Part shown: piece by piece, positions 8,108-63,159 of the stretch | Numbering within the stretch: position 1 is the stretch's first letter | How the letters are laid out: every line of letters begins with the position of its first letter | Assembly: GCA_003427395.1 (NCBI GenBank) | Contig: BFEA01000044.1 | Location: 1,761,974 to 1,825,973, forward strand | Direction: 5' to 3' | Origin: Chara braunii | Taxonomy: Eukaryota; Plantae; Charophyceae | DNA: 64,000 nt | The notes under the pieces: model-generated | What the model saw: the letters and a program-made list of their open reading frames with translations, nothing else | Databases searched by the model: none | Told to the model about the DNA's origin: nothing | Made by a program: the position numbers and the translations under genes

Positions 8108-8517
8108 CTACTTCTTCCTGAACCTTTTCTCTCTTAGGATTGCGTTTAAAATTGGTTCCCAGTTCCTGCCGTCAGTAAAACTTTATGGCAGATGGGGCTC
8201 GGGAAACCTATCAAACACAATCGGTGTTAAGTCACTAACTACTCTTTTGCCCCTTTTCTTTCTAACTCTCGCTTTTCTTGATCAAATATATTACTAATCC
8301 AGCTTCGAAAAGACTTGCGATCTGTCCCTCTCTCTCTCAATAAGGGAACATAGGGTCGGATATCGTATTCACCAGTGTGAACGAACTACGCCTTCCCAGG
8401 TGCATGCTTCTCCTCCAGGGATACACAGCGCTCAATCTTGTATGGAAAAGCTCCTCCACTGGTAAAAGGAACTACGGTATCCAGTGTTGCCGTGACTGTC
8501 GGACAGTAACCAGACAT
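8108..8517 (-). pseudogene. Accessory ORF F, paralogue of A/B/D (stops and one frameshift)
   Basis: MSGYCPTV...SGGAFPYKIERCVS...TGEYDIRPYV...FDRFPEPHLP*SFTDGRNWEPILNAILR; ends 25 nt before the gag ATG at 8082. Confidence 0.7.
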
Positions 8518-9788: not shown

Positions 9789-10184
9789 TCACCACACTCG
9801 ATCCCTTAATACCGCGTTGAGGATCGGTCCCTAGTCCTTCCCGTCACAAAAGCTAGTGGGCACAAGCGGACTTGGAAATCTCTCAAACTCTCTTGGCAGG
9901 ACACTCCAAGTCACTTTCTTCCCTCATTGTCTCAGCAACAACCTTTCATCTAGGACATACTCAGCAACATCTATCCAACATGTCTGGTAATTGATCCCTC
10001 TCCTTGTCTTAGCAACTACGTATGGCCTCACATCATAGTCATCCGTATCAAGAAACAGAGCTACATGGACGTACAAGATCACTGAGTCGTGCTCACAAGT
10101 CACACATCTCTCAATGACGTACGGGAAGACACCCCCAGCCGTGATCCTTGTTAGTGCTTCTATCGCTTTCGTTATTGCCCACAT
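9789..10184 (-). pseudogene. Accessory ORF B, paralogue of A (two internal stops)
   Basis: MWAITKAIEALTRITAGGVFPYVIERCVTC...FLDTDDYDVRPYV...Q*GKKVTWSVLPREFERFPSPLVPTSFCDGKD*GPILNAVLRDRVW. Confidence 0.72.
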
Positions 10185-10208: not shown

Positions 10209-10586
10209 TCAGTGCTGCATTGATTGGCTGCCCTTCCTACCGTCACAAAATCCTTTAGGTACTGGCGGGGTAGGAATTTTCTCATAAATCCTAGGCAGTA
10301 AGCTCCAACTCGCTTCTATCCCTTGCTGTCTCAACCAACCCCTCTCGGCTTTGACACATTTCACTATAACATCCCAGTTGGTAAAGAAACTAGGGTCCCG
10401 ATCAGCCCCTTATAGGACGTAGGGTCGAATATCATAATCATCAATGTCGAGGAATCTAGAGACAAACACATGCACAGTCGTCGTACTTTTTACACAAGTA
10501 ATGCATTTGACAAACATATAAGGGAACACACCACCGCAGGTGACACGAGTTAGGGCTTTTAGGACATTATACTCTTCAATTATCAT
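10209..10586 (-). pseudogene. Accessory ORF A, unknown ~130-aa domain (one internal stop)
   Basis: MIIEEYNVLKALTRVTCGGVFPYMFVKCITC...RFLDIDDYDIRPYVL*...SWSLLPRIYEKIPTPPVPKGFCDGRK. Confidence 0.7.
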
Positions 10587-10822: not shown

Positions 10823-10840
10823 TCCCCGGCAACGGCGCCA
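10823..10840 (-). promoter_or_regulatory. Primer binding site complementary to tRNA-Asp 3' end
   Basis: Minus strand TGGCGCCGTTGCCGGGGA, 4 nt after an LTR-type ...GCGCGACA end at 10845. Confidence 0.85.
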
Positions 10841-10844
10841 TTTT

Positions 10845-12562
10845 TGTCGCGCCCCCACCGTTTCCAGGGCCTGGCTCGATGTCCCTCCCCGGGCCGAGTA
10901 CAGTGGGTTGGTGGACTGGCAGGCTGTCACGCAGGATTTTGGAAAGTTTTAGGAAAATTAGAAGTAAATTCACAAGCAGCCTTTGTCACACAGTCGAGTA
11001 GTCAGGGTTATCCCTCCTGCCAGCGGCGACACGGCTTGGCGTTCGGTTTTATCGCCTGCACCTGGCCCTGTATAAAGGTTACACTCAAGGTCACCGGAGT
11101 CCCTATTATCCAGGAGTCCTTCAAGTAGCCTTGAGTGTAACCTGTTATGATAAGGAGTGATAAATAACTTGTTACCTCATGCATAAACATTCCATGCATT
11201 AAAGGACATGCATCATAAATCAAATGACACTAAGAGGACGAAAATACCAGAAACCAAACTCTGCAAGAGCATGACCAGAGATACGAGACTGAAGAGTAGT
11301 ACACATAGAATGCAGGAAGCAGCCATAGGAGGGGTTGCAGTCACTGATCAAACATAATAATGTCATAATGCATCTCAGTGACTAAAAGAACGAGCCTCAA
11401 TCAATAACGACAAGTGGTACCCCCTCATGAGTGGGCTCGACTGTCTGGGACTCCGTATCTGGTACACGCTGGTCCTCCTCATCATTGAGAACCTGAGTAG
11501 CCATCGACTCTGGGATCATATAGCTGATGTCAAAACATGCCGCAGGGTCGATCTTGCTAATATATGCCATACATCTCGCCATCTCCTCATCCGCGACACT
11601 CCAAAGGTACAACTCCTCGGCGAGGGAAATGTTGCCAGTGGCACCGATCAAGATCTCAATCCGTCCCTTGCCATAAATGTAATCATAAGAAACCTCCAAG
11701 AAACGGTCTCCATAGAGTGGCTTCCGAAAAGCCTGTATGACGAAGTCGGCTCCCACCAAATGACTGTAGCCATCCCCAAGATATGGGACTGGTCCCTTCC
11801 CCCTTGAAGGGCCGGCTACCTCCTATGACCTGGGTCCTCCTGACATGTAATGCTTGAATCAATCACCCTCATGCAGGTATCGTGCCAAGAGGTAAGCATC
11901 CCGTCGTACGGCTGCCTTCCGTCTGCGTCTCACTCCGGTGACCAATGTCATAAGATGCCCTGGATCTGCTCCAACTGAAGCGTACTCAATCCCTGTGGGT
12001 ATCCCAGTCAAAATAGTCCCCCAAGTCAACATCACTCACGCATCAAGGCTCTTGGTGAGACTCGTCTGTCTCTGACCTCTGTAAGCAGGTGGTGATAGGT
12101 ATCCCGGATCCGGCCAACTCGCTCCTTATCCTCCTGTCTTGCCGTCTCTTTTCCTTGCTGCCACCTCTGCTCAGTGGTTTTGGATTACAACCATCAAAGT
12201 CAAAGAGAGCGCCACCTGGTGCAAAGGGGACCTGGGGAAACACCACATGTAACCAGTGCTCCCTCCAGTAACTCTCCCTGCGGAAGATATAATCAGCAAT
12301 CCGATCACAGGTGGCTCCCTTTATTCCCTGCCCAGCATCTCTCATGTGATAAGTGATCACCAACGTGTATCGCGATGTAGGAGACTCTTTCGCCCTAATG
12401 ACGAAGCTCTGATGTCCAATGTGTCGGTAACAGAACTTCTCAACCAGCTTACCCCATGTAGGGGTTGTCTCATGTTGAGGAGCCAGCTTGACCAATCTGC
12501 AAAGTAGGGTAGAATGCTCCTGACAAGTGGTTACACCAAACAATGGTGTCCTGGTGATAAAG
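10845..12562 (-). repeat. Putative 5' LTR (U5 end at 10845; start not resolved, may lie in or beyond N gap)
   Basis: CA terminus adjacent to PBS; short motifs shared with 42300-42710. Confidence 0.55.
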
Positions 12563-12900: not shown

Positions 12901-13319
12901 GCAGCTCAGCAGCTCAACATAGCAACGTCATATGAGTATCTTTGTAACGAGTGGACTAGAATATGAGGAATGGGACTGCCAGTATCGTCACTGTGAAGGA
13001 CTGATCATCAAGGTGTTATCTATGCAAAGGCCAGTTGCAAAATACTCCGTGTGCAAACTGGACTGCGCTGATATCATAGGTGCAGGAAAATTACCGTCCG
13101 CACAGGGACTGATATGAATATTGTCCATGCAGAGACTGATCGGCAAGAAATCAAATCAGCCGGAGTTGGGGCTAGTCTTACCATCAGAGACATCCAGTCA
13201 CGTCCTCAAGACTAATCACACTAGCAAGGCGCACGTCCCCGACCATCATACAGGTGGGACGTGCGTTCTAGAATCATCAGAACATCAGAGCGCACACGCA
13301 CATAGCCTCCCTGAGCCAG

Positions 13320-15330
13320 GGCGCACTCATGTAATGATACCGAGCGTGGGCGCGCATGGGCGCACTCTCAGTAGGCACTACTAAGCTTGGGCACGCATGG
13401 GCGCGCACTCAAATCACACTTCCAAGCTTGGGCGGCATGGGCGCGCATGGGCGCGCACTCAAATCGTAGTTCCAAGCTTGGGCACGCATGGGCGTGCACT
13501 ATAATAGCAATTTTGGGCATGGGCGCGCATGGGTGCGCACTAAAACAACAATGCCAATCGTGGGCGCGCATGGGCGCGCACTCAAATAGCAAAACCAAGC
13601 TCGGGCGCGCATGGGCGCACACTCTCACAACAATGACAAGCTTAGGCACGAATGGGCGCACACTTAAATAACACTTATCAAGCTTGGGCACGCATGGGCA
13701 TGCACTCAAATAGCCAAACCGAGACTGGGTGCGTACTCAAACCGCCAAACTGAGGCAGGGCGCGCACTCGAACAGCCAAACTGAGGCTGGGCGCACACTC
13801 CAACAGCCAAACTGAGACTGGGCGCGCACTCAAATAGCCAAACTGAGACTGGGCGTGCACTCGAACAGCCAAACTGAGACTGGGTGCGCACTCGAACAGC
13901 CAAACTGAGGCTTGGCGCGAACTCAGACAACTTGCCCGAGCCTGGGCGCGCACTCAGACAACTTGCCCGAGCCTGGGCGCGCACTCAGACAACTTGCCCG
14001 AGCCTGCGCGCGCACTCAGACAACTTGCCCGAGTGGGAATCCGCACTGGTGTATGGTCCAGAATTGGCAAGGATCGTCGATGAGACAACTCTCAATGGGG
14101 TGCACGTTGGCTCTCATAATCGACAGCGAGGTCCACAGGTTGAGTGCGCACTGGCGCGCTAGCTCAGAAATCATCACGGTAGAGTACACAGATTGAGTGC
14201 GCATGGGCGCACTGACTCGAGCTCATCAAAGCAGAGTTTACAGATTGAGTGCGCACTGTTGCACAGACTCAAATTCTTCAAAAGTTCAGTTCACAAATTG
14301 AGTGCGCCCTGTCGCACTGGCTCAAGTTCATCAAAGTCGAGTTTTTGGGATGGAGTGCGCACTGTCGCACAGACTCAAATTCATCAAAAGTTGAGTTCAC
14401 AGATTGAGTGCGCACTGTCTCAAGATCATCAATGCCGAGTTTACAGATGGAGTGCGCACTGTTGCACAGACTCAAGATCATCAATGTCGAGGTTTGCAGA
14501 TGGAGTGCGCACTGTCGCACAGTCTCAAATTCATCAAAGTCGAGTTTTGCAAATCGTACGTGCAGTGTCACCCTCAAGCTTGAGTGCGCACAGTCACACT
14601 TGCTCAAGATCATCAATGTTGAGTTTACAAATTGAGTGCGTATTGTCGTACAGGCTCAAGATCGTCATGCCGAGTTTACAGATGAAGTGCGCACCGTCGC
14701 ACATACTCAAGATCATCGATGCCGAGTTTACAGATTGAGTGCGCACTGTCGCACATACTCAAGTTCATCAAAGTCGAAGCTTGCAAATCGAGTGCGCAAC
14801 GTCTCACTTGAGTTTGAGTGTGCGCAGTCACACTTACTCAAGATTATCAATGCAATGTTCACTGGCTGAGTGCGCAGTATCGCACTTACCTAGGATCATT
14901 AAAGCCGAGTTCTACAGATCGGGTGCGCAGTGTGGCACCCACTCAAAGCTGAGTCGCAGTTATTCAACCTCGTCAATGCAGGGCTTTACTGGCTGAGTGC
15001 GCGGTATCGCGCTCACTCAAGATCACTGAGACAAGGTTTGTAAATCGACGGCGCAGTGTCGCACTCAAGTTTGAGTGTGCACAGTCGCACATACTCAAGG
15101 TTATCAGAACGGTTTGCAGATTGAGTTCCCGCTTGGAATAATGAATCGAAGCTTATGGACCAAGTGCCTTCTTGGCATGCGGATTCAAATGCAATAATAG
15201 CAAATCTGTAATTCGAGTGCCCCTTGGCATGCTGGCTCAGATGCAATAAAAGCAAATCTGTAATTTGAGTGCCCCTTGGCACGCTGGCTCAAATACAATA
15301 AAATGCGATTCACTGATCGAGTGCCTTCTG
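13320..15330. repeat. Composite minisatellite with GCGCGCACTC core: ~31-43 bp units on the left, ~50-60 bp units with the core inverted on the right
   Basis: gggcgcgcactc units to ~14030; gagtgcgcac units from ~14140. Confidence 0.85.
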
Positions 15331-16329
15331 GCACACTGCTTGAATGTGATACAGCAAAGTTCATGGATCGTGTGGCCCCTCCCCGGGGCACGGTATACGA
15401 GGGTGCACAATCCCTGGCTTACCAACAGTCTTCAGACACAGTGCACGTGGGGGCGCAGCATCATCAGCCCTCAGGTANNNNNNNNNNNNNNNNNNNNNNN
15501 NNNNNNNNNNNNNNNNNNNNNNNNNNNNNNNNNNNNNNNNNNNNNNNNNNNNNNNNNNNNNNNNNNNNNNNNNNNNNNNNNNNNNNNNNNNNNNNNNNNN
15601 NNNNNNNNNNNNNNNNNNNNNNNNNNNNNNNNNNNNNNNNNNNNNNNNNNNNNNNNNNNNNNNNNNNNNNNNNNNNNNNNNNNNNNNNNNNNNNNNNNNN
15701 NNNNNNNNNNNNNNNNNNNNNNNNNNNNNNNNNNNNNNNNNNNNNNNNNNNNNNNNNNNNNNNNNNNNNNNNNNNNNNNNNNNNNNNNNNNNNNNNNNNN
15801 NNNNNNNNNNNNNNNNNNNNNNNNNNNNNNNNNNNNNNNNNNNNNNNNNNNNNNNNNNNNNNNNNNNNNNNNNNNNNNNNNNNNNNNNNNNNNNNNNNNN
15901 NNNNNNNNNNNNNNNNNNNNNNNNNNNNNNNNNNNNNNNNNNNNNNNNNNNNNNNNNNNNNNNNNNNNNNNNNNNNNNNNNNNNNNNNNNNNNNNNNNNN
16001 NNNNNNNNNNNNNNNNNNNNNNNNNNNNNNNNNNNNNNNNNNNNNNNNNNNNNNNNNNNNNNNNNNNNNNNNNNNNNNNNNNNNNNNNNNNNNNNNNNNN
16101 NNNNNNNNNNNNNNNNNNNNNNNNNNNNNNNNNNNNNNNNNNNNNNNNNNNNNNNNNNNNNNNNNNNNNNNNNNNNNNNNNNNNNNNNNNNNNNNNNNNN
16201 NNNNNNNNNNNNNNNNNNNNNNNNNNNNNNNNCCCGCAAGTGAGGGCCTCCCTCTCCAAGTGGCACGGCCTCTCTTTTATAGTGAAGAGGCCGGGTGGTC
16301 GGGCGAAGTGCAGCAGTCCTTGGGCTACA

Positions 16330-16760
16330 AATAGCACAGGCTTGTGCTAAAATTAGCACAGGCCTGTACTAAAATTAGCGTGGGACTGGGACAGTCCCGA
16401 CTTTGGGACACGATCAGTCAGTCCCGTGCTATGCCTGTGCTAAATATAGCACGGGCCTATGCTAAAATTAGCGCGGGACTGCTCTAAAATTAGCGCGGGA
16501 CTGGGACAGTCTCGACTTTGGGACGCGAACAGTCAGTCCTGTGTTAAAAATAGCATGGGCCTGCGCTAAATATAGCGCAGGGCTGTGCTAAAATTAGCGC
16601 GGGACAGGGCTAAAATTAGCGCAGGGCTTGGGATAAAAATAGCGCGGGCCTGCACTAAAAATAACCCAGGCCTGTGCTAAAAATAGCGTGGCCTACGCTA
16701 AAAATAGTTCAGACCAGTACTAAAATTAGTGTCGGGCTTAAACTGGCCCGACTTTGGAAT
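16330..16760. repeat. ~21-22 bp tandem repeat (gcctgtgctaaaattagcgcgg)
   Basis: Directly visible. Confidence 0.85.
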
Positions 16761-17419
16761 ACTAAGGGTCGGCCTTGTTTTTGAAAACAAAACACCCCTC
16801 TTAATGTTAACAAGGGGCCAATCCCGTATTCCCTTTGACCATTTCGGGCTGTACTCTTCCCGACGCGGTAAGTCCGGTCCCAAGTGGTCAATTCTCACTA
16901 ACCCTTGGTCCATTTTCAGTGCCATTCGGACCGGGTCCTACTAATTTAGCCCTTGTAGACGCGGCGGCTCAGCCCAAAAGCCGTGATTCGATCTCCATGG
17001 GGCTGGACCGTCGTGCCGTCTTGCCCGTTTACTCGACCCAAGGGACCAACCAGCGCATTAACATTTTGCTGATCGTGACCACAAGCAACCCTGCATCACG
17101 GAGGCGGAGCGCGACGAGTCAACTATACGTTGACGCGGCGCGCCGCTCTCCGACAGCGCGACGAAGGAGGAGACAGCCATAGCCTTGGCTGGAGCACTCT
17201 GCTCCACCTTGGCAGGCTGGTCTCTAGGGGGACTCTGCGGCAGCGTGGTGAGGAGCGGCAGCGGAGCGTGGCAAGGAGCAACGGGGAACACCACAAGTGG
17301 TGGGGTTATGCTGCCGAAATACCGCGGCGTCGGCGCGACACCTTTATTCTGAGGGGTGACGCTGCCGTTTTCACGGCACGTCAGCGGCACTTTGTTTTGA
17401 AGAGTGAGATTGTCGTTTT

Positions 17420-17950
17420 CACGGCACGGTAGTACATCGCGGTGGAGCGCCGCCGTCTTTTTGCGGTGGTACTGCGTGGCGAAGCGCCGCCGTTTTTTTA
17501 CGGTGGTACGGCACGGCGAAGCGCCGCCGTCTTTTTGCGGTGGTACAACACGGCGAAGCGCTGCCGTTTTTCTTACGGTGGTACGGCACGGCGAAGCGCC
17601 GCCGTCTTTTTGCGGTGGTACAGCACGGCGAAGCGCTGCCGTTTTTTTACGGTGGTACGACACAGCGAAGCGCCGCCATCTTTTTGCGGTGGTACGGCAC
17701 GACGAAGCGCTGCCTTTTTTTTTACTGTGGTACGACACAGTGAAGCGCCGCCGTCTTTTTGCGGTGGTACGGCACGGTGAAGCGCTGCCGTTTTTTTATG
17801 CGGCACGACGAAGCGCCGCCGTCTTTTTATGGTGGTACGGCACGGCAAAGCGCTGCCGTTTTTTTTATGCTGGTACGGCACGACGAAGCGCCGCCGTCTT
17901 TTTACGGTGGTACGACACGGCGGAGCGCTGCCGTTTTTTTTTTTTACGGG
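17420..17950. repeat. Tandem repeat (cggtggtacggcacggcgaagcgccgccgtctttttg), two alternating variants
   Basis: Directly visible; accounts for the spurious repetitive ORFs on both strands. Confidence 0.9.
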
Positions 17951-31229: not shown

Positions 31230-32550
31230 CCCTCTGCAGTTGGCGCCAGAGAGCACAAATGGGTAACCGTTGCCCGTACCCGGCTGTACCCAACTGTAAC
31301 CGCCTGGTTATGGGCGGGTATGGGTACCCTTTCCGAAGGGGGAGTTAGGTATGGGCAGGCACAAACAAAAGGTGGTGGTTGTTAGGGGGGCCACAATTGC
31401 CCTTTTTGGAGATCAAGGGTGGGTAGGGGCAGGTAGGGGTAGGGGTAAGCAAAATAAAAACGGGTATGGGCAGCCGGAAAAAAAAAAATAGACAGGTATG
31501 GCAGGTACGGGTGGCCAAAAAAATGAAGGGGTGGGTACGGGCGGGTAGAGGTTCCCATCGGGTAACCATGGTATACCCGATGTGAGTTTTGTAGCTTTGC
31601 AGGCTTTGTATTTTTGCTCAAGCATAACACTCTTCTCATATTCGAAATTTCTTGCTTTCCCATGAAGCAACGTTTTTCCTCGCAAGGGTGAATTTTATAT
31701 CTCTTTGTTTATTTATCTTTTGTTTTTCAAAATTTAAGACAATTTTCATATGTGTGTAACCCTGTGTATGTAACATTTATGTGTGTGTGTCGCAGGTGTG
31801 TATGCGTGTTTGTGTGTGTCAGAGTGTATGCGTGTGCGACAGACCGAGGGTTGTTGCATTTGCAGATGCTATACATGTTGCATAGGCTGCTGTAGCACCA
31901 GATGCATCCATAACAGCATCAGAGTGACCAGATGTAACAACTGTTGCTGTTGCGGCGGTAGCTGAAGCAGCTGCCACATCTCGAAAAAAAAAATAATAAT
32001 AATAATATTAACAATAACAAAAACAACCACGTCAATCCTGTGACGTCCAGGGGGTTGGGGACAGTTGGGGGCTGTTAAGGACAACCAGGGGTTAGGCGCA
32101 GTTAGGGACAGTTAGGGACAATTAGGGGCGGTTAGGGACAGTTAGGAGCAGGTAGGGACAATAAGGGGCGGTTATGGGCGGTTAGGGGATGGTGCGTGAT
32201 GAGCATGGGTGGTTGTGGGTGGGTGCCTATAATTATGGGTAGGTACGGGTGGGTACTGGTAAAGAAACTTGGGTAGGGCCTATGGGTGGTAAACAAACAG
32301 TTTGGGTTCAGGTGGCCATGGGCGGTTTTGAAAAAAAATGTTCATGGGCAGATATGGCCAGTTACATGCTGAAGAGGTTCAGGTAGGGTAGGTCTGGGTA
32401 TACTTTTTTTTTTTTTTTAGCAGGTGGAGATGGGTAAGGGTCCAGCATGCTAGGTATAAAGTGGGTATGGGTGGTTGGTTCTCAAAGAGGGTGTGGTTAG
32501 GTCAGGTACAAGTATTCCTAAAAATAGCAGTTGCAAACTTTGATGGATGC
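31230..32550. mobile_element. GGGTA-rich non-autonomous DNA-transposon-like repeat containing a 10-bp gttagggaca array (32050-32190)
   Basis: Dense gggta/taccc motifs at both ends; TIR and TSD not resolved. Confidence 0.35.
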
Positions 32551-32912
32551 TGCAGAGAGAATGGCAACCAGCAGATTATCAGATCAAGAGAGATGGAACA
32601 AGAAGAGATACGTAAGGAAACAGAAACTAAAGGTTTGGTGACGTTGTCCTCCTATTCAAAATTTCCCTTGAGACTCAGTGGACCAAACAATTGGAGCCCA
32701 GATGGCTCGGTCCTTACAAAATTACAGGTGAAGCAGAAGGCAAAGTCTATGAGATATCAGAGATGGATGGCTCGAGAGTTCATGATATGGTAACAGGGTC
32801 AAGACTTCGTAAGTTTATCTTCAGAGACCCTGACCTGGTCCCTACAACGATCACAGGAAAAGGAAAGAAAAGTCAATCATCCAGTAAGACAGCAGTTTCA
32901 GAAAGTTGAGAG

Positions 32913-33521
32913 CTACGTAGCACCGTGTTCGCATTCGAAGGCGAACGCGAACATGTTCGCCCGAACGTGAACAAGCGCCCAAAACCCTCCGAACGCGAAC
33001 ATAAAAAAAAGAAAAAAACAGTTCTCTGAAAAATCTGAAACAAATATATGTTATGTAAAATAATAATACAAGCAACTTTTGCCCTGGAGTCATGTTCAAA
33101 TTTGTAGCCCATCACGAGTTAAAAATAAAAAACCGAAAAAATATATATATACCGACAGTCTGTAGAGTTTTCCATCTGGTGTGGGTGAGTGATAGTCTAC
33201 TTTGATTTTGGTTAAGGTAGATTATCATTTACAGTGTAATCAGTGAGGGGATTCTGCAGACTGATGAGGGTTCAGCCTCCTGATGAGTCGGTGAAACTCT
33301 GACGAAACAGTTTGTCACAGCCCCTCATTTGTTGTCCTCTTCTCTCTCTCTGCCTACGGTTTACCGGGCAGTTCTGTTTGTGACGATATATTTACATATA
33401 TTTTACGAAAAAAAATACGTTCGCCCGAACATGTTCGCAAGCTGTTCGCGCGAACACGTTCGCGCGAACGTGAAGGAGCGCGAACGTGAAGGAGCGCGAA
33501 CACGTTCGCCGTGCTACGCAG
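32913..33521. mobile_element. hAT-like MITE, 609 bp
   Basis: TIR ctacgtagcac / gtgctacgcag; 8-bp TSD gttgagag/gctaagag (6 of 8 match); subterminal gttcgc/gcgaac repeats. Confidence 0.7.
33261..33330 (+). ncRNA. Type I hammerhead ribozyme motif, probably degenerate
   Basis: CUGAUGA (33280-86), stem II GUCGG/CUGAC with 7-nt loop, GAAA, 3-bp stem III, GUC (33314-16); distal stem I AUGAGGG/CCCUCAU, proximal stem I mispaired. Confidence 0.65.
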
Positions 33522-36500
33522 GCTAAGAGAGTATAGTGAGGCAGTGAGGTACTGTAAAGATAAGGGTTTCGGCAGACATTGACTACTCTTGCATTGTGAA
33601 TTCAGCATGTCAGACTTTATCACAAGGGACTTGGGAGAGACTTTTCCGATGATCCGTATTTGTTTCTGCATCTGAACTGATTTTACTATTTTTTATAAGC
33701 GACAGAATCAATGAGATCAAAGTGTCATGAATGATAGGCCACAGTCGATCCATGAATATCAAATCCCTAAGTGGGTAACTAACTGTGAAGTGCAATTGCA
33801 GTAATATCGAGTTCGGAGAACTCGTGGCTGCGGCACATCAAAGAGTAACTAGTATTAATCTCAAGAGAAAATATGATCGGCATAAAGAAATTCAGCCTTG
33901 CTTGACGAGAGAGTTGTCAGCCTGGGGACTAGATGTTTCTTGACTAAGTTGCCTATCTTTCGTCCCAGATGAGGGAAGGGACCTCTCTGGGGCCAGTATC
34001 TCTATGTTTCCTTGAGGCTGATGGGAGGTCTATTGGGAGTATTCTCAGATGAGGAAAGGGACCTCTCTGGGATCAGCACTTTGTATTTCCTGAGGCTGAA
34101 GGGAAGTCTCTAGGAAGTGCATTGTCGGTTGTCGCTTGTTGTTGTTCAGTGCCTTTTGAGACCGAAGGGAAGTCTTTTGAGAAATGTTTGTTCTGATATC
34201 TGGGGCATGGACTGTTTGACTGCGGGCTTGAGATGTTTGTTTGGCTGTCTGTGCCTGGGATTTTCTTCTCTAACCTAAAGATGCATTGATTGTCGGGGCT
34301 AGCGAGAGCCTTACCGTAGTAGGTTGCAATCTGGTGGGGTCAGCAGGTCTCCGACGCGAGTGTCGAATTCCGTAGTTGACTGAGGCTAAGACTCCGGGAG
34401 TCTGGCCTGTGAGGTCAAAAGGGGTCAGCACCGCATTTAGAGGATGCAATCCAGTAAGGTTCGCCAGAGCCTGGACTCGTGGTTAGACCGGGTCCCACGT
34501 TCGAAAATTTAGGCAGGGCACCCAGCGCCCTAGGCCAAAAACTGGTGGGTGAGCCGGTCCCCGATCGCAGTGGTCGAATCCGGGTACGGGACAGTTGGGC
34601 TGAATGAAGGTTTACTGTCATAGGGTGACCAGACCCGCTATAGTCTGGGTGTCCTGGCGAGAGTGCCAAAGGGTCACCATACTCGAGTAGTGGGTATGGT
34701 GGTCTTGACCTGGAGGCAGGTTAAAGGGGTCGTCAAGACAGATAGTCTGATTGGTCCTGGCCTAAGGCGGGCCGAATGAGGTATGTCAGACTGACGAGAG
34801 GCCTGTCATTCCTGGCCAGTGGTGGGCCAAAACCAAGGCAATCAATAACTCTTGGGTATGAAGAACTGTTTGTATTACTTATTATTTTATTTTGGGTTTA
34901 TCTTATTTTGTTCTATTTAATTATTGTTTGATGATTGTTTGTTCTATTTAATTATTGTTTGATGATTGTTTGTCAGTAAGCCTGTATGTTGGGACTGTGG
35001 AACTTGCTGTTTTGCAGGATCATGCAGACACATCAAAAGCTTCAAGGCCAGGGAAAAGAAAAGGGGTTTGGTATCCCCCTTTATTTGTCTGAGAAGTGAG
35101 GATATGCCTCGCTCAGACCAAAGAAAAATAACAGGGTTTGGTATCCCCAGAGTTGCTTGAGAAGTTGAGAAGACGTCTCACTCAAGTCAGAGAACAAGAA
35201 AAGGGTTTGGTATACCCTATCCCCAGTATGGCAGACAGAAGGAGTGTCCTCAATGTTAAAGTCAATTGGACAAATATCCCTGGCACCACCGTCAAAACAA
35301 GGAACAAGGTAACTTCATAGCTGAAAAAGTTCAGCGACAAGTCAAGCCAGCAGCAGATGAGAAATCCTTCCTAAATTCATTTGGTGGCCGACAAGCGGCC
35401 TGGTTCACAAGGAACCTGCATCCCCGACCTCGAGGTATTCAAACTCATAAGCCAGGGGCGCTATGGAATGGACTGAAGAGTCAAGAAAAGAAAAGGATTC
35501 AGAAGTTCAAGGAAAAATCACGCTTATACAGGATATAGAGGATAGCCATGAACTCGAGCTGAAGAAGTGTGAGGAGAAAGATAAGGCAGAAAATAGTACA
35601 ATCACTAAGATGAGAAGAGGGAGAAATTGTACATGGGACAGAGGTTGATGGAATAGGCATTAGGGCTCTACTTGCCGCGGGGATAGTAGGTGCTCTAGGT
35701 GAGTATGGAGGAGAAGAAGTGTCGGGCATGCTCCTCAAACTTCTTCTAGAAGTACTTCATCCTCGTAGGGGATGGAGTCCTTTCGTACCAGCCGGTAAAA
35801 GGCTGGCGCGGGTATGGCCTCATGTGGGAGCCGTAACCTCGCACTTCCTCGTCCTCCTCTGAGCTATATTCATGCCGTGTGCGAGTTGCCAGCTCTTCAC
35901 GAGTTTTTCCTCCCCTGCCACCTCTTCCTCTTCCCTGTCCTCGACGTGCCTTCGGCATGGCGCGTGCGTAGTAATGAGGACGCGAGAAGATACCGTAGGA
36001 GTAAAGAGAACAACGCTATTAAAAAAGGGAAAAGGGAGGTGACCGCACAAGTCGCCCAAGACGGCAACGCAATGGACAAAGGGAGAGTGTGCCGCAAAAG
36101 ACATAAGGAAGACACAGATCCGTGGCGAGAAACCCTGCCTTAAGCTGCTGTGAAAATGATCGAGTGCAGCACTGATCCTTGTTGCTTTTATACTGTTGTT
36201 TACTTTATTTTGGCCCAGTGGGGACGCTGGGCGTGGGTTTGGTATCATGTCCGAGGGCACGGTGTCCCGACCCTCCGCTTTGTGCCAGATGACAATTCAA
36301 GGAGTCCCACTATGTACCAGCTCCCTGCTCGGACTTCACAGCAAACCACCTTCTTGCCGACAGACCTCCACAGGTATTAGGCACACTCTATTTCTCGGCC
36401 CCATATCGTGCCAGGCGCTCCGCTTCTCAGTAATATACCAAACTTGCATGTGGTCGTTGTCGTCCAAGGACGCGTGGGTAGCGGGTCGGCGCACTGTTTC

Positions 36501-39500
36501 CTACTACACATCAATCCCCCTTTTTTTGTCGGATTAGGGGTAGTGTGTATAGACCGGGCGGTTACAGTCGAGTAAGGAGCGAAAATAAGGGAAAGAAAAG
36601 AGAAAAATTAAAGAAAAGGGAAGGAAAAATGAGAAAGAGTCATGTAGCGAGTCCACACCCTGACTCGAATCGTTTCTTCCATTCGAGTCATCTAAGTGGA
36701 GCCAGGTTGCAGCGGCGCTACGTTTCTTTTTAATTTCCCTTTCTAACTATTATTATTAATCTTACTACTACTATTATTATCATTACTACTATTGCCATTG
36801 GGAATTTCATCTTTTGTTTTTCGTTGCTTCATAGGGGAGCGGACAGTCGATGCTGAAATTTTGCATGAGTAGAACCTGATTGTTCGACTTCTCGCGTTCC
36901 GGTTGCTCTCAGCCTGTTGTAAAGTAGACCCCAAAAGAGGGGTAACTCGCGGCCGCATTGGTAGGAGGTTTATCACCTTCCGCGGAAGGTCATAAGCCCA
37001 CTCCTTGCCATCGGAGACGGGTACCCATTAGTGGTAGCCCGTAAGCGCCTTATGAAAGAAGTGGAGTGTCGGGCGATATTATGGGACCGTTGAGCGCCGG
37101 ACTGTCTGTCTTTTCAAACAAAGTTGACAAGACAGATAGATGCAGACTGAGGAGTCGTGTTCGCGCAGTGACCGTTAATGTCCTACTCTATTCCGTTTTG
37201 AATTATTTTATTAACTTATGAACTACAAATTATTAGAATATCGAATTTTGAAAAGTCATTAAAGTCTCTCATTAGGAACGCAAGCATCGCGGCGTGTAGT
37301 GATCCTATAAGAGTTGAAAGGGGCTAGTTGTTGGCTACTGACTAATAGAAACTCGTAGGCAGCCCCGCTCTGGTAACGTTGGTAGCCTAAGGGAGGCGGG
37401 CAGAACGGTGTGGTGCCCCGTTGGTGAATTCTTTGGGTGCACGTGAGCCAGGTATTTGGCTATTCTGAATGCGGCTATGGCATACCGAAATGGCCTGCGC
37501 GGCTATAGGCAGCTCGAGGATGAGAAGGGTACTTTGGTTGAGACCATACTATCCTACTGAAAGTCGATGTGAGAAGTAAGGCTGACGATTAACGTTTGTG
37601 GGCACCGGGAGCAGGAAATGAGGAGAGACGAGAAACTACAGGCGAGGCGCGCAACAGGGCTAAGCGGAGGTGTAGGTGAGACGGATTGACTGCAGGAATG
37701 CGAGTGACAGTCACTTACCATGCGAATGATTCTTCGACTGGGACTACGACCATGGAGGTGCAGCGTGTCGACCGGGACTCCGAAGGGAAACCTGAAATGA
37801 GTGACGTTGAGGCGGCTCAATCCTAGCACGGGAGGGACCAGTGGCATATGGACCACCCGCCGGCCGGGCCTGTGGAGAGTGGTCCTGAGGACAACTCGCG
37901 ACGACGAGACTAAGCCCACAGGGCAGTTGCGGAGAAAGAGAGAGAGACGTATTTTTGAAAGTGAGAGGAGAGAGGAGCACGACTCCCTGGGCTTCACAAG
38001 TGTTGGTCTACCGAAGAGAGCCGTGAAGAAAAAGAAAGTGGTGTGCATTGGGAGTCACGTCGCGTGACCCATGTATGCTAAGGTGACAGACTGACTCGGT
38101 CGATGCCAGCTGCTCCCCTACTCGATTTGCACTCGTTGTTTCGATGGTCTTCATCTCTAATCTTGGTGGTTCGTATGAGGTCAGCGTGACAATGCTCTAG
38201 CCATAGCGTGGAGATGGAAGGGGGAGGAGCTTGAACGAACAATCTGTGATTAAGGAGCACGCTCTTCTGCAATAGTCGGGGTAGACACACGCCGCAGGGT
38301 GGTGGCCCCTACTATTGTCATCTCGAATCTGCAGGAGGAAGAAAAGCGGAGTGCGCGCGTGCACTGGCCAGGCAAGAGGTGGCCAGAGAGGGAAGAGGCG
38401 AGAGCGCTAAATGGTGACACGCAAAGGTCAACAGGGATCAGAGAGAGGAGTTGGGCGCCTCATGTGTGATCGGTGCGACATCGCACGTTACTGGATGTAG
38501 TTAATGGTTGAACTCAATTCCCCCCTCTATCTGGACTTAGTCGCGAGTTAGCGGGCTATGTATAGAACGTGGCATGTGGTGACCTGCGGTTGCCAAGAGG
38601 GACGAGCAGGGTGTGAGCCCGATCATCGCCGTTGACGTCACCCTCCTCTTCAAGCATGGCACCGTGTGCAGCAGTGAGTAGTGCTGATTTCTGCGGGTTG
38701 CAAATGGCGAAAGTAGTGGAAGACTGCCATATGTATGCAGGTGAGGACGAATTAGGGGGAGAGGTAAGGCGATGGGAGATCCTCTGAGACAGAGAGGGCC
38801 TTCGTGAAGGAGCGGAGTAGCATGCATGAGGATGATGTTGCTGACGTCACCTCTCTTGCTCAAGTCACTGCATAACCGACAGGGGTCAGTCCCCTGGGGC
38901 GAGCTGAGAAACACGCAGTCTCTTAAGAATTTGACGATTGGAGATCTCCCACTCGACTTCTCATCCGAACTCGTTGACTTGGTCTATGTCATGGACGTCG
39001 CGCGTTCATGTGCGCTTGGGATAACTACTAAGGACTTGGTAGTCTGAAAGCGACTCGAGAATTGTCATCAGTGGGCGTACTAAGCGGGAAATAATCTTTG
39101 ATTGATGCTATCTCATTTGCTCGAGTCGTCATGTCATTAAAGGGGCTGTGAATTGGACCCTCACTGAGAGAATAGCAAACACCCACCCTCATCAGGGAGC
39201 AAGTCTGAGACTCTATAGGTGAACTCCGATCCTGAACATGTATTGTATATCGATCTCTCAGTTACACGGTTCGGGTTAAGAGTTGCTTGGGGCTATCGAG
39301 CAGGGTCAACCCGTGATCTTACGCATGCTCCAGAAAACAGTTAGCTAAAATGTGATATTAAATGAGTTGAGGCGGGGAGAGGTGACAGCTGCCCGACTCG
39401 ACAAGTAATCGAGATCTGATGGAAGAACGCAACGTGCAAGGCAGACTATGGGTGTTAGTTGAGATCTCATGTGCTCTGAACCACTCTTGATGAGATGACA

Positions 39501-41590
39501 TTGTGACTGAGAACAGGCTGGAATGTTGAAAGAGTAAAGACAAGTAACAGCTAAGTATATTCTGAGAGTTAAGCGGTTATAAACGTTGTCGGAATTTGAT
39601 GGGCTATGAACTAAGGGGGTTGCTAATTGGTTGTCATGTCTATGAGTGACGAAAAGGTCTGGATAAGTTGCCTTGTCATTTTCCTTTATGGGATTATTAG
39701 TAAAAGAAAAATGATATGCCAGAAATATGAAGGTATGATTGTGAGTATCTGATGGATTGAGTCTCTATGAATTGTCGCTTTATCTAGGTGCTTGATTGCT
39801 GCTCACTCATTTTGCACCCCGTCGCATGTTTCCTCGCCCTTGGTCGTGTAGTGGGCCAAATTGGGTGCTCATTTATATTGTGTTTCCTTTTTTTTTCAGA
39901 CTGGGGGAAAACTCGGCAACGCTTCCTCGATTACTAGAGAGAGTTGAGTAAGTTTTTCCCTATTAAAGTAAAACGGTTGAGTAAGCTTTTCCCTATTAAA
40001 GTAAAACGGCCATGCTTCGCTGCAAAAGCTCCCTCCCTTGATTGATGAATGGGAAAAAGGGTGAATTTAAAGGAGGTTGATTACCTTCTAGTTAAGTATA
40101 TACTCGACGGAGACTAACGAAATCTTTGTCTGTGTGCGTTCTTAACTAGAGGAGCAGATAGGAGACGTGAATTTGACTAACCCTGCACGATGATACAAAT
40201 GAGCTTGTTTTAGAAGTTAGCGTTAATTATAGCCTGATTGTCAAGGATCTGACAGGACTGGGCCCTTTCCCCTATGGAAAGGCCGCTCCTGGTATCAGGC
40301 TGATTACTTTAACTGTGAAAAGTGGAACGTTGTATATGAGAACTGATGCATGCCTAAGCACACAATTCTTAATCCCAAGTTACTGATGGCACGCGCAATT
40401 TGCTTCTCCCTAAGGACTATCTGAGGGGGCACGAGTCTGTTCTCACGAATCTGTGGCGCGGACAAACCAGTCTCCCCTGGCCTTTTTAGGCAGGCCCACC
40501 AGCTCCTAAAAGAGGTGAAGGAACTACCGCCGACTGTCTGTGTGCTTAGCCCAGAGATACTAGTGACCTCGTGAACAACACTAATTAGAGGGTTGTCCAG
40601 ACACGCTTGCGATCAGGCAAGTTCTGTTGGCTATCATACACAGTACACCGCGTAAGGACACCCGGTCTCCCACGTTGGTTATTTAAAGTAGACAAGCCTT
40701 TGCCGCACAGTGCGGCTTTAGCTGGGGTCGCCACTCGCTGTAGTAGCAGACTATCACCAATTGCTTCAAACCCTAGCCAATCGTAGTGTATTTGTCCGTG
40801 ACCAAAGATTGGTATTGTTGGACACTAGTCAAGCTCCCTCAGTACATTTCTTATGATCTCTACTTGGAGCTGTGGCTGAGAACCCTTGCAAAAACAGGTG
40901 AAGCATCAGAGGTGAGAATGCTTTATCGATAACCTATGCACTTCACCAGGATAAGTTGAAAGTTTGGGAAGAGGACACACCTGAGGACTTTCGGTGCCAC
41001 GTAAGGTTAATGAGGGACCTTGCACTAAAAGTGTCGAAAACCCAGAAAAACATCGAATACATCATTTACTCCTATGGGCCTAGCGAAAAACTGTACACTG
41101 CATACTCGTCTCTTGAGACGATTGAAGAGGCCATGACGGAGTCTGAGAGAGTGTGAGAGTGTTGAGATCCCTCTCCTCAAGGACTCCACCAGCATACCCG
41201 ATTAGTAGGCAACACTCAACCCTCTGTGTCCCAGTACTCAGTGTTGCTACCAAGCGGACAGTACTCAGCGTCACTATCAAGTGAATAGAACAGTGACCTG
41301 CAATTAGGTTAACTATATCCAGTGCCTTGACAAGTAACCAGTACTTCGTGACCTATCAGTTTCAGCAACATCAAGCCAGTGGAAAGGGGTTATCAAGAAC
41401 CTCAATCAAGATCAATCAGCATTTAATCAACATTCAAACAGTACATAACTAGTATTTAATCATCAGAGATACTCGAGACTTCCCGTCAGAATCAGTCAAC
41501 CATTGGTCAAACTCGTCACCTTCATCACATATATAGGTGTTACTCTCATCAAAGAGTGGAGAGAACAGTTTCAATAACCAGCTTCGGCCC

Positions 41591-42248
41591 ATGAGCGCTA
41601 TTCAGTCATTCCCCGTCAGTGAGTCGGTTTTGGCCAGCCTCAACAAGATAGCCCTCAAAGATGCAGTCCAACATCGGTACATCAGTGTTGTTGGCTTCAG
41701 ACAGTGAGACCTATCCATTTTTGTTGTTCTCACCAGTTTTGCAGCAGATACCATCCTTAACCTGAGACCCTACGTGAAGAAAGGCAAGGAGACTCATCAA
41801 TGCTTTGACTCAAGTCTGGATTTCAGCAGCCGGATACCTTGAGAAGAGAGAGAGGGAGCTTGATGAAAGTGGTACTAAGCTGATCCGTAGCTTTGGACCC
41901 AAGCTCTACTCTGACTATCCCAAGCCTCCAGTACCTTTCAGTCTCACTGACGGTTCTTGTTGGGGTGACTTGGTAGATCTGGCCAAGAGGTACATCTCAC
42001 CTGCAGTGATTGATTATGAGGCGGTAACCGAGCCATCCGAGTTCTGGCATCTCAGACGAAGGATCTTCTCCCAAACGTATCTTCCTACTCTATGGGAGGA
42101 GTTTTGTGTTATGGTTGACTTCCGCATTATGGCCCTCGGATGGAAGTGCTCGGAGCTTGCAGGCTTTAGGTGGCTCTATATCCAGAAACCACAATTTCAG
42201 GGAGTACGTGGACATGGCTCAAGGCACAGGAAACACACAGCCAAGTGA
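41591..42248 (+). pseudogene. Accessory ORF G, homologue of domain A/B/D/F with C-terminal extension (one stop, one frameshift)
   Basis: LNLRPYV/KARRLINALTQVWISAAGYLEKRERELDESG...PKLYSDYPKPPVPFSLTDGSCWGDLV. Confidence 0.65.
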
Positions 42249-42712
42249 GAGATTGAGTATGTGACCCGGAGGGATAAGTGAGGACTCTTGACAAGTGCTG
42301 GTCGTGTCTCTTCATATGTACTCACTGAAATTATTATGAGCTTTCATTCTTCCCTCATTTATTTGTCATTGTTCAAGTCAGTCAGTCTTGCATCATCTAC
42401 ATTGTCTTTGCTTGATGATTATGTTCTCTGATGATCTCGTCACAGTTCTCAAAATTAGAAAATTGGCAAATTGATGTATGCATGACATGCCTGAATTTTA
42501 CGATTATTATTTGCAGGATTCTTTGCTGTTCCGAATCAAAATAAAAGATTCCTAAGACCGGGGACCGGCGAAGACCGCAATTGAAGGGTCTCGCTCGAAG
42601 AAGCCCGACTAGAAAAAATGTGACAACATTGCAAACTTCAACCAAACCCTGTGTGACAGACTGTTGGCTTTCTGGTCGCCTGAAGAAGCCCGACTAAAAA
42701 AAATGCGACAAC

Positions 42713-43811
42713 ACGCCCTGTAGGCCCACAGCGGCCCTACAAGCCGCAGGTACCAGCTAGGCAGCACTCACTTGTTTATTTATTTATTTATTTTGTGATG
42801 TGCTGACCTACATTTGTCTGTTCAGATGTCATTTCGGACTGCAGGCCCCAAGGCGACGCCTTGGGCGAGGTACACAGGGACGAGGCCGTTTTCAGGCTAG
42901 GAGTGTTCTACATCAGTGGCGTGGTCTTGATACCAGGTAGGGGCCCAGACCAAGTAGGCCATTTTCAGGCCAGTACCTGAGGCGCGCCCAGCAGGCCCAA
43001 CGCTACTTATAGCTGGGCTGAGGGTGGGCAAACACAGTTGGAGTAGCTCACTTCTTCAGCGACACGCTGCTGGTTGAGCGCTGTACTGTTTAGCGCTGCG
43101 CTGCCGAGTTGGAGGGTGAACACCGGAAGACCGAGGGGCGGAGGCCATAACTGCGTTAGGGGACTTACCTGGCGCCATAGCTGGCACTCACACGACGACA
43201 ACAGGACAGCAGTCAGTTCGGCGGTAGCACCTGCAGGTGAGACAACGAGGAAGGTGACATCTTCTTCTTCTTCGCCGGTCTCCCTCTCGTCTCCCTCCTT
43301 TCTCCTCTTCCTTCTTCTTCTTCTTCTTCTTCTTCTTCTTCTTCTTCTTCTTCTTCTTCATCAGACACGAGAGAGAGAGAGGCTACAGGCAGAGGTTACT
43401 GTGGGCAGACCGCCCAAGATCTGATCCGACATTTTTGAGGCAAACATTGATTGGGCATCGGCAAGGGACTATTTTTGGACTTCGCTATTGCGATCTCGGT
43501 CTTCTCCCTCGCCTCTCCCCCCATCTCTCATATGTGGTACCTCCCCATGTGCGTGTACCAAGGAGGGACCTTTCTTCTATGTGTGCGGTCCCTCCTCCTC
43601 TCAGATGTGTGGTGTATGATGGGATGTCGAGTCAGTCCCGATCAGGTCATGACTTATCTTTGACTCTTCCACTGCGCTAGTTTGTGCTATTTTGTATGTA
43701 TCAGGGTGTACATTGCTTATTGATGTTTCACTGACATGGCATTGTCCATTCAGTCCTTTTCATCACATTGTGGATCCTTGGCTCCATATACATCGCCCAA
43801 CCGGGCATGTA

Positions 43812-60081: not shown

Positions 60082-60203
60082 GGGCATACTCGCATTAGCA
60101 ACTTTCTTGGATGAATCTGACTGCGATTACCGCCAGAGGTGGATGCATCTGACTCCAATCAAGTCCAGGGCTCAATAATACAAGCCCTAGTGTGAGTATG
60201 CCC
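60082..60203. mobile_element. Tourist-like MITE, 122 bp; related copies begin near 44793, 56384 and 59931
   Basis: TIR GGGCATACTCGCATTAG / CTAGTGTGAGTATGCCC; flanks TAG and TAA. Confidence 0.75.
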
Positions 60204-60276
60204 TAAGCAAGGAGAAGGGGGAAGGAAATTGGCTCCCTTTTTTTTGTCTCGAATGGAAAAGAAATGAGGTGATTAC

Positions 60277-60465
60277 CTTGCAAATCCAGTGGGGCTCTCG
60301 CTCGGTTCCATGATTAACCCATATGCGAACCGTTTTATCCCCGCCACAGGATGCCAGAGAAAGCCCGTCAGGGGACCAGGCAACATACCATACCCGGTCG
60401 GAATGCCCTTCCAGAACCTGCACCTCCTCCAGCCCAACCTCTCCATCCTCAAACGTAGTTGCCAT
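60277..60465 (-). CDS. CIA1: CIA1/CIAO1 WD40 cytosolic Fe-S assembly protein, coding exon 1 (63 codons)
   Basis: ATG at 60465; MATTFEDGEVGLEEVQVLEGHSDRVWYVAWSPDGLSLASCGGDKTVRIW...WICK is the first WD40 repeat of CIA1; ends at AAG|GTAATC donor, phase 0. Confidence 0.92.
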
Positions 60466-60490
60466 CGGTAAATCAAAACAACAAAACGAC

Positions 60491-60492
<2 letters not shown>

Positions 60493-60557
<65 letters not shown>

Positions 60558-60558
60558 N

Positions 60559-60614
<56 letters not shown>

Positions 60615-60621
60615 TGTGTGT
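60493..60621. repeat. (CT)n(GT)n microsatellite just upstream of the CIA1 ATG; others at ~26007-26134, 28808-29146, 43813-43867, 51787-51857, 63948-64000
   Basis: Directly visible. Confidence 0.95.
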
Positions 60622-63159
60622 GACACACACTGTGTCTCTCTGTGACATACGCACACGCACACGCATACGCATATGCACCCACGAGTACAGACTTCTATCG
60701 GTCTGCCTGTCAGAGGACGAGCTCTGTTTAGACCTGTGCAGCGGCCGGAGGCCGAGCTTCGACTTCTTCAAACTCGCCCCCCGACAAACGTGACGGAGGT
60801 GAACTGTCAAAAGAACTCCATCCAATCAGCCAGCGGATCGGCCGGACGCGTCGGCAAGCGGATCAAATGAAGTCACTGATCATCGGCTGAATGTGCTCAC
60901 AGGTGGTGGCAACGTACTTTCGCTGCAACCCATAGTAGATGAATCTTTCCAGCCTCTGTACTCTTTTGGTGCCGTACGTATGGCGAGGCCTTTAGGGCCG
61001 AGCCCCGCGGTAAAAAAGAACCGGGTAAGGCTAAGGGCGATGCTCCACTACTCAGCAACTGTCCTGTTTCAGTTGCCCGGGTTGGTCACTTCATGGTCGG
61101 CCAAGGCGTCTCGTACGGTTATCAACGGTTCTCTTTGTTGGGACTTTCTGTCCTTGTGACGGGACTCTTGGGACTTTCGGTTGTTGGGACTTTCTGTCGT
61201 TGTGACGGGACTCTTGGGACTTTCTGTTCAGCCGTGGATCCTCTGCAGCGGCAGCGACTTTTTGATCCAGTATCCAGTATCCAGAGTGCAGTAGCATGTA
61301 TCTTCGTTCGGTGTATGCAAACCTGCACCTACAGCCACAGCAAGTTGGGATCCGTCCCATGCCGTGCCTTCTGGAGTCCGTATGCAAACCTGCACCTACA
61401 GCAATGGCAGTCAGCATCACTGAAGGGGAGGCAGTCAGCATCACTGAAGGGGAGGAGTCTTTCTCCTCACCTAAGTTTTGGCGAGGGGCTGCTCCTTCCA
61501 TCGCAGCGTAATGGATCACTTTCAGTCTCCATCTCTACCTTCTTTCTTCTGCTCAAGGTCATCTACTCCGTGGTCGGCGTCGCGCATTCATCCGTTGCTC
61601 TTCGCTCAAGGTCAACTATTTTCAGGCCATCAGTCTGTCTGGTCGCACATCTGGTCTGTCAATCCGGTAAGACCATCTCCATGAGATCCCATTCTGTAAA
61701 TGATGGTGAAGGTTCTCTCTCTCATATCTGTCCCCATCATGTCCCCAGCCCTCCCTCCTTCCCGTCGCACTCTCATTCATTTAGAACATGTTCCTCCCCC
61801 CTTTCCGTTGTTCCTTGCAGTCCTCCTCCTTCTTCCCCTCATCCTTCAACTCCTCCTTCATCCCCTGCAGGTCTGCCATCCCCAACCAGGCGCCCCCCTC
61901 TTCGATTGGTATCCCCGGATCCTTCTTTCCAGTCTCCACGAAGACTGGATTTGCCCCTCTACGATCCCCTCTTAGAATCCAACTTTCTTCGCCAGCATCA
62001 ACCTTCGTTCTCTGGATACCCCCGCCCACAGAGGAACTCCTTGGTCAGTTCAAGGATCACATAACACCACAGTTTCATGACATCTTCACTCCTTTTTTTT
62101 TCTGATTCACGTCTTGAGAGTATCTTTGTTCTTGATTCCCCTACTGCATCTCTTCTTCCTCTCCATCTTGCTCTTCTTCCTCTCATCACACCTCGTTCCT
62201 TCTCTAAACTGCAGCAGGCTTTGGTGAAGATTTGTTACTCTGCTCCTACTACTATCGACAACCTGTTGGACTTCGCTTCTTCCCTGGCGGGTTTCACTTT
62301 TCTAAACAGCAGCAGGACTCTGCTAGTACTCCGGAGGAAACGTGCGGCAGAATCGTTGTCCCATCCTTTCTTCGTCCCAATCATCTTTGGCCTTCTCTCT
62401 GTCGACAGCAGGAGACTTGTTGATCTTTCCTCCAAGGGACTCATCAAAGTGAAGATTGATCTTCACGTCTTCAAGGAAGGATTCACTAACGATATGGCCC
62501 TACTGTTTTTCTGTTTCTGCGTCTGACAAACGCTAGATCTAAGATTCCACTCTAATTAGGTCAATAATGGTCTACACAATTTGCCAGAAAATATACCTAA
62601 CTTAGCCTCTTCCTCTCTTTTCGTCGTCCCTATTTCCTCACTCTTCATTGATTTCTTCAACTCCCTATCTCTGTCTGCAATCGAATCCATGCATCTGCCC
62701 GAATTATTCGCCTGGGGTCCAGGTTCCTGGTATAGATTTATGAGGAAGAGAGCCTATGGTTTCATCCCTGATTATCTCTTCAGACCTGGTCAGCCTTTCA
62801 GCACTCGTCCTTCCTACGCGAGATTCATTCTCTCTTCTGATTACCATGGTACTCTCGTTTTCTGCTACGAGGATACTCTGCCGTCCGAAGATGAAGCGAG
62901 TTCTTAAGCAGCCCCCCCTTCCTTTTCTAGGAGAAGACGTCTGAAACTTCTCCTGAACCTTCTCCTCCAACCCAACCCGTTCCTCTCCAACCTCTGCTTC
63001 TCGTTCCACCCAATCCCTCTTCTCGACCCCACCCCCAGAATTTGCCGAAACCTTTCTCATGCCTCTTCCTCCTCTTTATCATGCATCACTTCACCTTTTA
63101 TCTCTTGTTTCCCCACTTTTTCTGCCATCCTTCTATCCCTCATCAGTTTTTATTCTGGG

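Follow-up and report, generated by a model that had tools for sequence, protein, structure and literature searches.

A broken paralogue of gypsy leader ORFs near the LTR end of a high-copy retrotransposon in Chara braunii

Is a small, broken open reading frame close to the end of an LTR in an algal genome the remnant of a genuine protein gene, where in its retrotransposon does such a gene sit, and what may its product do? The question is raised by an ORF, here called G, at 41591-42248 on the forward strand of a 64,000-nucleotide stretch of Chara braunii DNA (the window), with its start codon at 41591 and its stop at 42246-42248. Extra ORFs are well known in plant gypsy elements, mostly without a function, and a survey of them counted ORFs of at least 250 codons, a heterogeneous set (PMC7264820; PMC6317226); their role in the LTR retrotransposons of plants is unsettled (PMC7264820). 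From the letters of the window, G had been predicted to be a fifth homologue of a domain that recurs in the leader of a neighbouring gypsy element. The reading favoured here is that G is a broken small gene near the 3' end of an LTR in a high-copy retrotransposon, likely a Ty3/gypsy element of C. braunii, that it probably lies inside a long gene-bearing LTR, and that intact copies probably make a soluble accessory protein, which may help the element against host control.

G and the leader ORFs of a neighbouring element

The neighbour, element 1 (2.6-12.5 kb, reverse strand), is of the Ty3/gypsy kind, with protease, RT, RNase H and integrase following gag in that order by Pfam. Its decayed gag-protease-RT-RNase H-integrase region (2589-8080, reverse strand) is also matched by protein P0002 in about six or seven pieces at 66-92% identity. 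Its LTR ends in GCGACA (10850-10845) and is followed by an Athila-type PBS of the tRNA-Asp/Asn kind starting at 10840 (the two spanning 10823-10850, reverse strand), which matches the published PBS of FIDEL and Athila (PMC2844528; 10.64898/2026.03.20.713144). An archaeal-type second RNase H, a feature of Tat/Ogre/Retand, had no Pfam match in P0002 or in the ORFs of element 1, both of which are partial or decayed. Between PBS and gag lie six short ORFs (A to F) with close stop-to-start coupling, four of which are paralogues: A (10209-10586, one in-frame stop), B (9792-10184, two in-frame stops, 58% identical to the open P0003), D (9028-9432, stop-free) and F (8108-8517, with stops and a frameshift, directly before gag). 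The other two, C (9785-9453) and E (9000-8520), likewise on the reverse strand, have no relation to the domain that A, B, D and F share. Tandem repeats occupy 2000-2570 and 13300-17950, in arrays with units of 46, 31, 41, 53, 22 and 37 bp, the 46-bp array sitting in the 3' region of element 1.

With tblastn, the stop-free frame of G (41778-42245) matched ORF B at E 2.7e-5 (34% over 70 aa) and ORF A at E 0.014. Against a profile of A, B, D and F, with G left out of its building, G scored 39.2 bits when the break in its frame was placed near 41812 and 34.8 bits when it was placed near 41778, in a gap-free alignment of 116 columns (profile columns 9-124), far above the top score of 12.3 among 5000 shuffled versions of G. 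In a six-frame scan of the window the C-terminal piece of G alone reached 20.5 and the top unrelated place 6.4; the reversed window gave 2.5, and none of ten locally shuffled windows exceeded 4.5. Pairwise z values against shuffles were 14-20 for G with A, B and F and about 1 for G with D, which is not significant alone, and local identities were 24/110 to A, 24/91 to B and 24/75 to F. At the DNA level no match to element 1 was found in 39.9-43.2 kb. Judged by these comparisons, G is a true homologue and a distant paralogue of the four leader ORFs, as had been predicted, and it belongs, as had also been proposed, to a different element, its family being other than that of element 1 both in the pairwise comparisons and in the tree described below.

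By its sequence, the window copy of G is a pseudogene. Its N-terminal part (41591-41812) begins with the same start Met as P0001, is 69% identical to P0001 residues 1-74 and holds an in-frame TGA at 41705-41707; the frame then changes near 41812. The C-terminal half of the shared domain (41814-41999), recognised by the A/B/D/F profile and 64% identical to P0001 residues 75-130, encodes a long helix, a strand, a Pro-rich loop and a DG..W helix. Two independent gene-model copies, P0001 and P0005, track the first frame of G to 41809-41812, and in run X1 seven contigs show a one-base difference from the window at 41812. Because these copies and contigs place the break at about 41812, the likeness of the segment KARRLINALTQ to ORF B, which the original prediction had quoted, is an off-frame coincidence. 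The predicted extension of about 80 aa held up: 42000-42248 comprises 82 codons beyond the shared core plus the stop, with a basic tail and no Pfam match, and it belongs to the G type, because about 45 of its residues are kept in P0005.

The protein family and its predicted fold

A profile search of 1.84 billion representatives with E up to 0.001 gave nine matches, eight of them credible; P0002 and P0012 were added by word searches and P0011 by cluster look-up, while P0007 (E 1e-17) was discarded as an artefact, being a tandem-repeat protein with matches in 14 stretches. In the protein libraries the family is small. All named protein relatives are C. braunii gene models. Four members are C. 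braunii gene models that splice the ORF onto other transposon pieces, and the remaining ones are stand-alone ORFs on contigs of 0.5-1.5 kb, where the stop-free relatives measure 81-161 aa. The gene models P0001 and P0005 are 64-70% identical to G with the extension included. A protein search with the stop-free frame of G retained none of 17 candidates, no pattern match to the family was found among viral contigs, and a search of metagenome contigs with P0003 gave 130 pattern matches, none of which was confirmed.

In an unrooted domain tree of 16 rows, a clade of G, P0001 and P0005 (100/99) branches off on a stem of 1.55, apart from A, B, D and F, with P0006 as its tentative sister (94/96), and A, D and F stand on long separate branches. 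P0006, on a 667-bp contig, is the most divergent stand-alone member and may come from another charophyte. Since the domain is found in several separate clades, its earlier description as a lineage-wide accessory module is fair. With codons aligned by protein, the five window paralogues agree at 34 of 136 four-fold degenerate sites, no more than expected by chance, and pairs with G at 11 of 47, while protein identity of the well-aligned window pairs is 22-47%. Because synonymous sites are saturated while the proteins stay this similar, the alignment points to long purifying selection on the protein. The original prediction had taken the position of G as independent support for a real protein; the position says little here, and a stronger case comes from the saturated synonymous sites, the open copies and the confidently predicted fold.

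AlphaFold on P0003 (17-row alignment) gave a model with pLDDT 82 and pTM 0.77, with three strands leading into a helix of 23 residues, then a fourth strand, a Pro-rich loop and a short helix, and the G-type piece showed the same elements with pLDDT 81-96 over residues 1-80 and below 50 in the extension. The intact protein is thus predicted to fold as a small alpha/beta domain, in which a three-strand sheet is followed by a long helix, a fourth strand and a closing helix. F44, R53 and Y55 are invariant in all 16 rows and D51 is present in 15 of them, G carrying N where the other rows have D51. A transmembrane segment, the mark of an env-like protein, was found in none of the ten sequences tested, whose top 19-residue Kyte-Doolittle means are 0.63-1.49. 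Pfam returned nothing above its cut-off for any family member, and in alignment A3 none of the 17 rows matched Athila ORF-1, the plant mobile domain or Transposase_28 at E up to 1.

One alternative is that the domain is a captured and eroded host fold, either a gelsolin-type actin-binding repeat or half an EEP/GNAT enzyme, which would move particles along actin or act on nucleic acid. Gelsolin/villin domains do recur in a wide VIA search, in which five chains had Z of at least 5 and none of at least 8 (a missing match does not prove a new fold), and EEP proteins turn up repeatedly among the ESM Atlas structures (TM 0.52-0.59) and among weak Foldseek matches. By the notes of the tools themselves, however, all these matches rank no higher than chance (Z below 8; "under the bar"), and three unrelated folds tie: the best VIA rows (Z 5.2-5.1; best match rmsd 4.4 over 82 aligned residues) are shared by villin, GNAT and a curli regulator. 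Nor is there any backing from Pfam or from the PDB sequence search, which returned designed helical repeats and Ni-SOD only, with E values no better than 0.004; in Foldseek searches of PDB and BFVD no match had an E below 0.001, and the best Atlas feature score for P0003 was 0.75, below chance level. The villin, GNAT and EEP likenesses of the model are probably common arrangements that assign no fold, and a host origin of this kind is very improbable.

The LTR end and the position of G

An LTR-like end had been expected at about 42710, some 460 bp past G, and an end was confirmed at 42710, 462 bp after the stop. The non-coding 3' stretch of the LTR (42249-42710, forward strand) finishes with GCGACA (42705-42710), and related copies end at 42710-42712. 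Contigs and reads related to the window were followed over 42560-42760. In run X1 (648 aligned contigs) at least 21 and at least 19 contigs continue into mixed flanks (agreement 0.42 and 0.41) and at least 14 into the PBS also present in element 1; in run X3 (618 aligned contigs), which is of the same sample as X1, the corresponding counts are at least 28, at least 18 and at least 10, and in RNA run X6 at least 13 reads run on into mixed sequence. Mixed flanks together with a PBS at 42710-42712 are what a mixture of 5' LTRs with 3' or solo LTRs gives; the LTR of the G-bearing family ends in CA, and then comes PBS or unrelated flank according to the copy, as in an LTR retrotransposon. The window copy is a 3' or solo LTR, because no PBS follows its end.

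A 20-bp motif at 42644-42663 (forward strand), 47 bp before the LTR end, has 17 of 20 positions in common with the 5' LTR end of element 1 at 10939-10920. Its score was reached in 0 of 2000 shuffles of the last 150 bp of each LTR and in 41 of 2000 for whole tails, a test that is post hoc, because the motif was first spotted in an earlier comparison. The LTR end also holds a 38-bp direct duplication (42591-42628 and 42676-42713), and most related copies part from the window after 42600 and rejoin it near 42644.

The summed depth of related contigs over 41576-42685 is 670-25,000, compared with a depth of about 10 for contigs identical to the window, and upstream of 41576 it falls to 5-130. This depth, which is no copy number, marks G and its tail as part of a high-copy repeat. 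Downstream, 42797-43100 is a different high-copy repeat with RNA reads, and a joint from 42886 to 43035 occurs in all three RNA runs and is absent from X1.

These observations bear on the possibility that G is a displaced leader fragment of the family of element 1, or a chance frame without protein function. The window copy is indeed broken, and the motif first quoted for it lay partly off-frame. Against this, 39.9-43.2 kb has no DNA match to element 1, synonymous sites are saturated with the protein conserved, and G is high-copy and tied to an LTR end; the LTR-end pattern and the separate, long-branched clade refute this reading, to which next to no probability is given.

Where G lies in its element depends in part on what precedes it. 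The C-terminal tail of an integrase from a related gypsy family (32534-32849, forward strand; weak SH3_Tf2-1 match, Pfam E 0.011) is 44-56% identical in protein to the integrase of element 1. The earlier statement that G follows a same-family integrase tail is right as to strand and order, but the tail is 8.7 kb away and only that similar to element 1's; it possibly belongs to one element with G, and nothing was found bridging 32.8 to 37.5 kb. A MITE-like insertion with short terminal inverted repeats (about 32912-33525, by eye) stands just after the tail. Closer to G, a decayed ORF at 37528-37940 (forward strand) is related to P0005 residues 24-167 (41-50% identity, E 6e-17), and P0005 joins relatives of this ORF and of G in the same order, which connects 37.5 kb with G in a copy other than that of the window. 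A further decayed ORF, U1 (40752-41156, forward strand, from translation), has no similarity to G or to A-F and likely belongs to the same cassette as G; one X1 contig joins 41158 to 41589.

Decayed ORF pieces on the same strand are seen at about 37.5-37.9, 38.6-39.0, 40.2-40.6 and 40.75-41.15 kb, and it is possible that the pieces over 37480-41156 form a multi-gene cassette upstream of G. None of the other candidate ORFs (C, E, H1, H2, U1 and a second upstream ORF, U2) nor the G extension is related to the domain (z at most about 3). When the 3' region of element 1 was compared with 32.8-43 kb for DNA colinearity, no 3' tile rose above its shuffles; a signal from a hand-picked sub-window (166 against a shuffle maximum of 134) was dropped, since 5 of 300 shuffles equalled or exceeded the score in the wider test. 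Rfam on 32-44 kb and ARAGORN gave no matches.

As regards the LTR itself, it is probable that G sits within U3 of a long gene-bearing LTR. This position is favoured because G and the LTR end are covered to a similar order of depth, and because the 5' LTR end of element 1 is likewise preceded by two decayed ORFs on its own strand. These are H1 and H2 (172 and 200 codons, 12561-11400, reverse strand), which end 552 bp upstream of that LTR end, have no Pfam match, are not homologous to G and suggest a long coding LTR in element 1; an N gap at 12563 cuts them off. A sequence scan gave no convincing candidate for the LTR start, PPT or target-site duplication of the G-bearing element, and because the LTR start was not found, we infer both the location inside the LTR and the direction of any move. 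The drop in depth upstream of 41576 does not fit a uniformly conserved long LTR, although divergence near the 80% cut-off could explain it.

Somewhat unlikely, by comparison, is a place for G in the 3' internal region, as an extra ORF in sense orientation that follows pol and precedes a short 3' LTR, which is the ordinary eORF-3'F position. G would then be the last gene of a cassette of about 37.5-42.2 kb, and its protein family would be no different. Sense ORFs between pol and the 3' LTR are the common kind (PMC7264820), and the integrase tail upstream on the same strand, the link of 37.5 kb to G in P0005 and the lack of an LTR start in the scan would all suit this arrangement. What speaks against it is the similar order of depth over G and the LTR end, the ORFs before the 5' LTR end of element 1 and the lack, by eye, of a clear polypurine tract between the stop of G and 42710; a scan ending at 42300 found none after 37671.

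A possible role and its relation to known elements

Three poly(A) RNA runs gave 95, 888 and 103 reads over the 3.3 kb of 39.8-43.1 kb. Nearly all of them stem from other copies, because only 0, 10 and 0, respectively, are at least 99% alike to the window. Over 41798-42130 the reads lean about 6:1 in run X5 and about 4:1 in run X7 toward the sense orientation of a usual stranded library and are unbiased in X6, which is weak evidence for low sense transcription from relatives of G. Accessory genes borne on retroviral LTRs are expressed from the 3' end of the RNA or through short or spliced transcripts, and G, if it lies inside the LTR as favoured above, may be expressed in one of these ways.

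In the mechanism proposed here, the protein would be non-catalytic and would contact a partner with the conserved D-x-R-x-Y face of its third strand, and the repeated duplication and divergence of its paralogues would reflect a contest with host silencing. A soluble factor that counters host silencing is put first among the specific roles because many fast-diverging small paralogues suggest such a contest, and it is advanced tentatively, as a possibility short of even chances. The two locations of the domain would most simply go back to an old duplication within the element RNA, in which each round of reverse transcription joins the 3' end to the leader across the LTR; since leader and LTR positions adjoin in this way in the replication cycle, an old duplication would put paralogues on both sides of the PBS.

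Alternatively, the protein may serve the element's own particle in a structural or RNA-handling capacity, acting in packaging, RNA transport or translation of the multi-ORF leader, rather than in counter-defence. The charge of the members ranges from neutral to mildly basic, the C-terminal tail is basic in several, one strand face bears an invariant Arg and Tyr, and the leader ORFs are tightly coupled stop-to-start, all of which would agree with such a helper. A structural role, however, would not need as many as four or five paralogues (22-47% identity) within one lineage, and no RNA-binding fold stood out; this role is considered unlikely.

Among known plant elements, the closest parallel is with the eORF/aORF of the non-chromovirus Ty3/gypsy elements (OTA: Athila, Ogre, Tat/Retand), in which conserved ORFs of unknown function stand beside gag-pol and the elements are long, with LTRs of up to about 5 kb (PMC6317226). 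A tRNA-Asp-type PBS is likewise present in Athila and FIDEL (PMC2844528). In contrast to the OTA eORFs, here one domain of about 125 aa makes up four tandem leader paralogues and occurs again at the LTR end of a sister family. The main text of the OTA paper mentions neither Klebsormidium nor charophytes (PMC6317226). The env-like sense ORFs of Athila4, Calypso and Bagy2 resemble G in orientation and in lying near the 3' end of the element (PMC7264820), but the G family has no transmembrane stretch and is small and soluble by its predicted fold. Among the papers found by literature searches, none describes the family, and a single paralogue family on both sides of the PBS appears to be new.

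Protein genes borne on LTRs are known mainly from retroviruses, HIV nef and MMTV sag being accessory genes that overlap U3. G resembles them in being a small accessory ORF that lies at the LTR end or within it and is dispensable for the core enzymes; it differs in that no relation of sequence or fold to nef or sag was found, in that the host is an alga and in that its U3 position is putative. Should G lie inside the LTR, the green lineage would have a retrotransposon with an LTR-borne protein gene, and solo LTRs would seed that gene across a large algal genome. A broader reading, which we regard as rather improbable, is that of a charophyte gypsy lineage with a virus-like array of many small accessory genes, housed in long coding LTRs and a polycistronic leader, whose core would be an expanded paralogue family of an uncatalogued alpha/beta fold countering host silencing; every solo LTR would in that case also spread a coding accessory gene genome-wide.

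Whatever its role, the G family comprises a small, soluble and well-predicted protein with natural open copies and invariant residues, which makes it expressible and testable. It also matters for annotation, since pieces of the family already stand as false exons in the host gene models CBR_g4049, CBR_g30998, CBR_g46266 and CBR_g49123. Elsewhere in the window, fragments of other gypsy families lie at 20.8-25.2 kb and 46.8-49.7 kb (P0009 matches; SH3_Tf2-1 and RVT_1 by Pfam), and a frame at 60187-60822 (reverse strand) with one WD40 repeat (Pfam E 2e-11) is probably a host gene exon.
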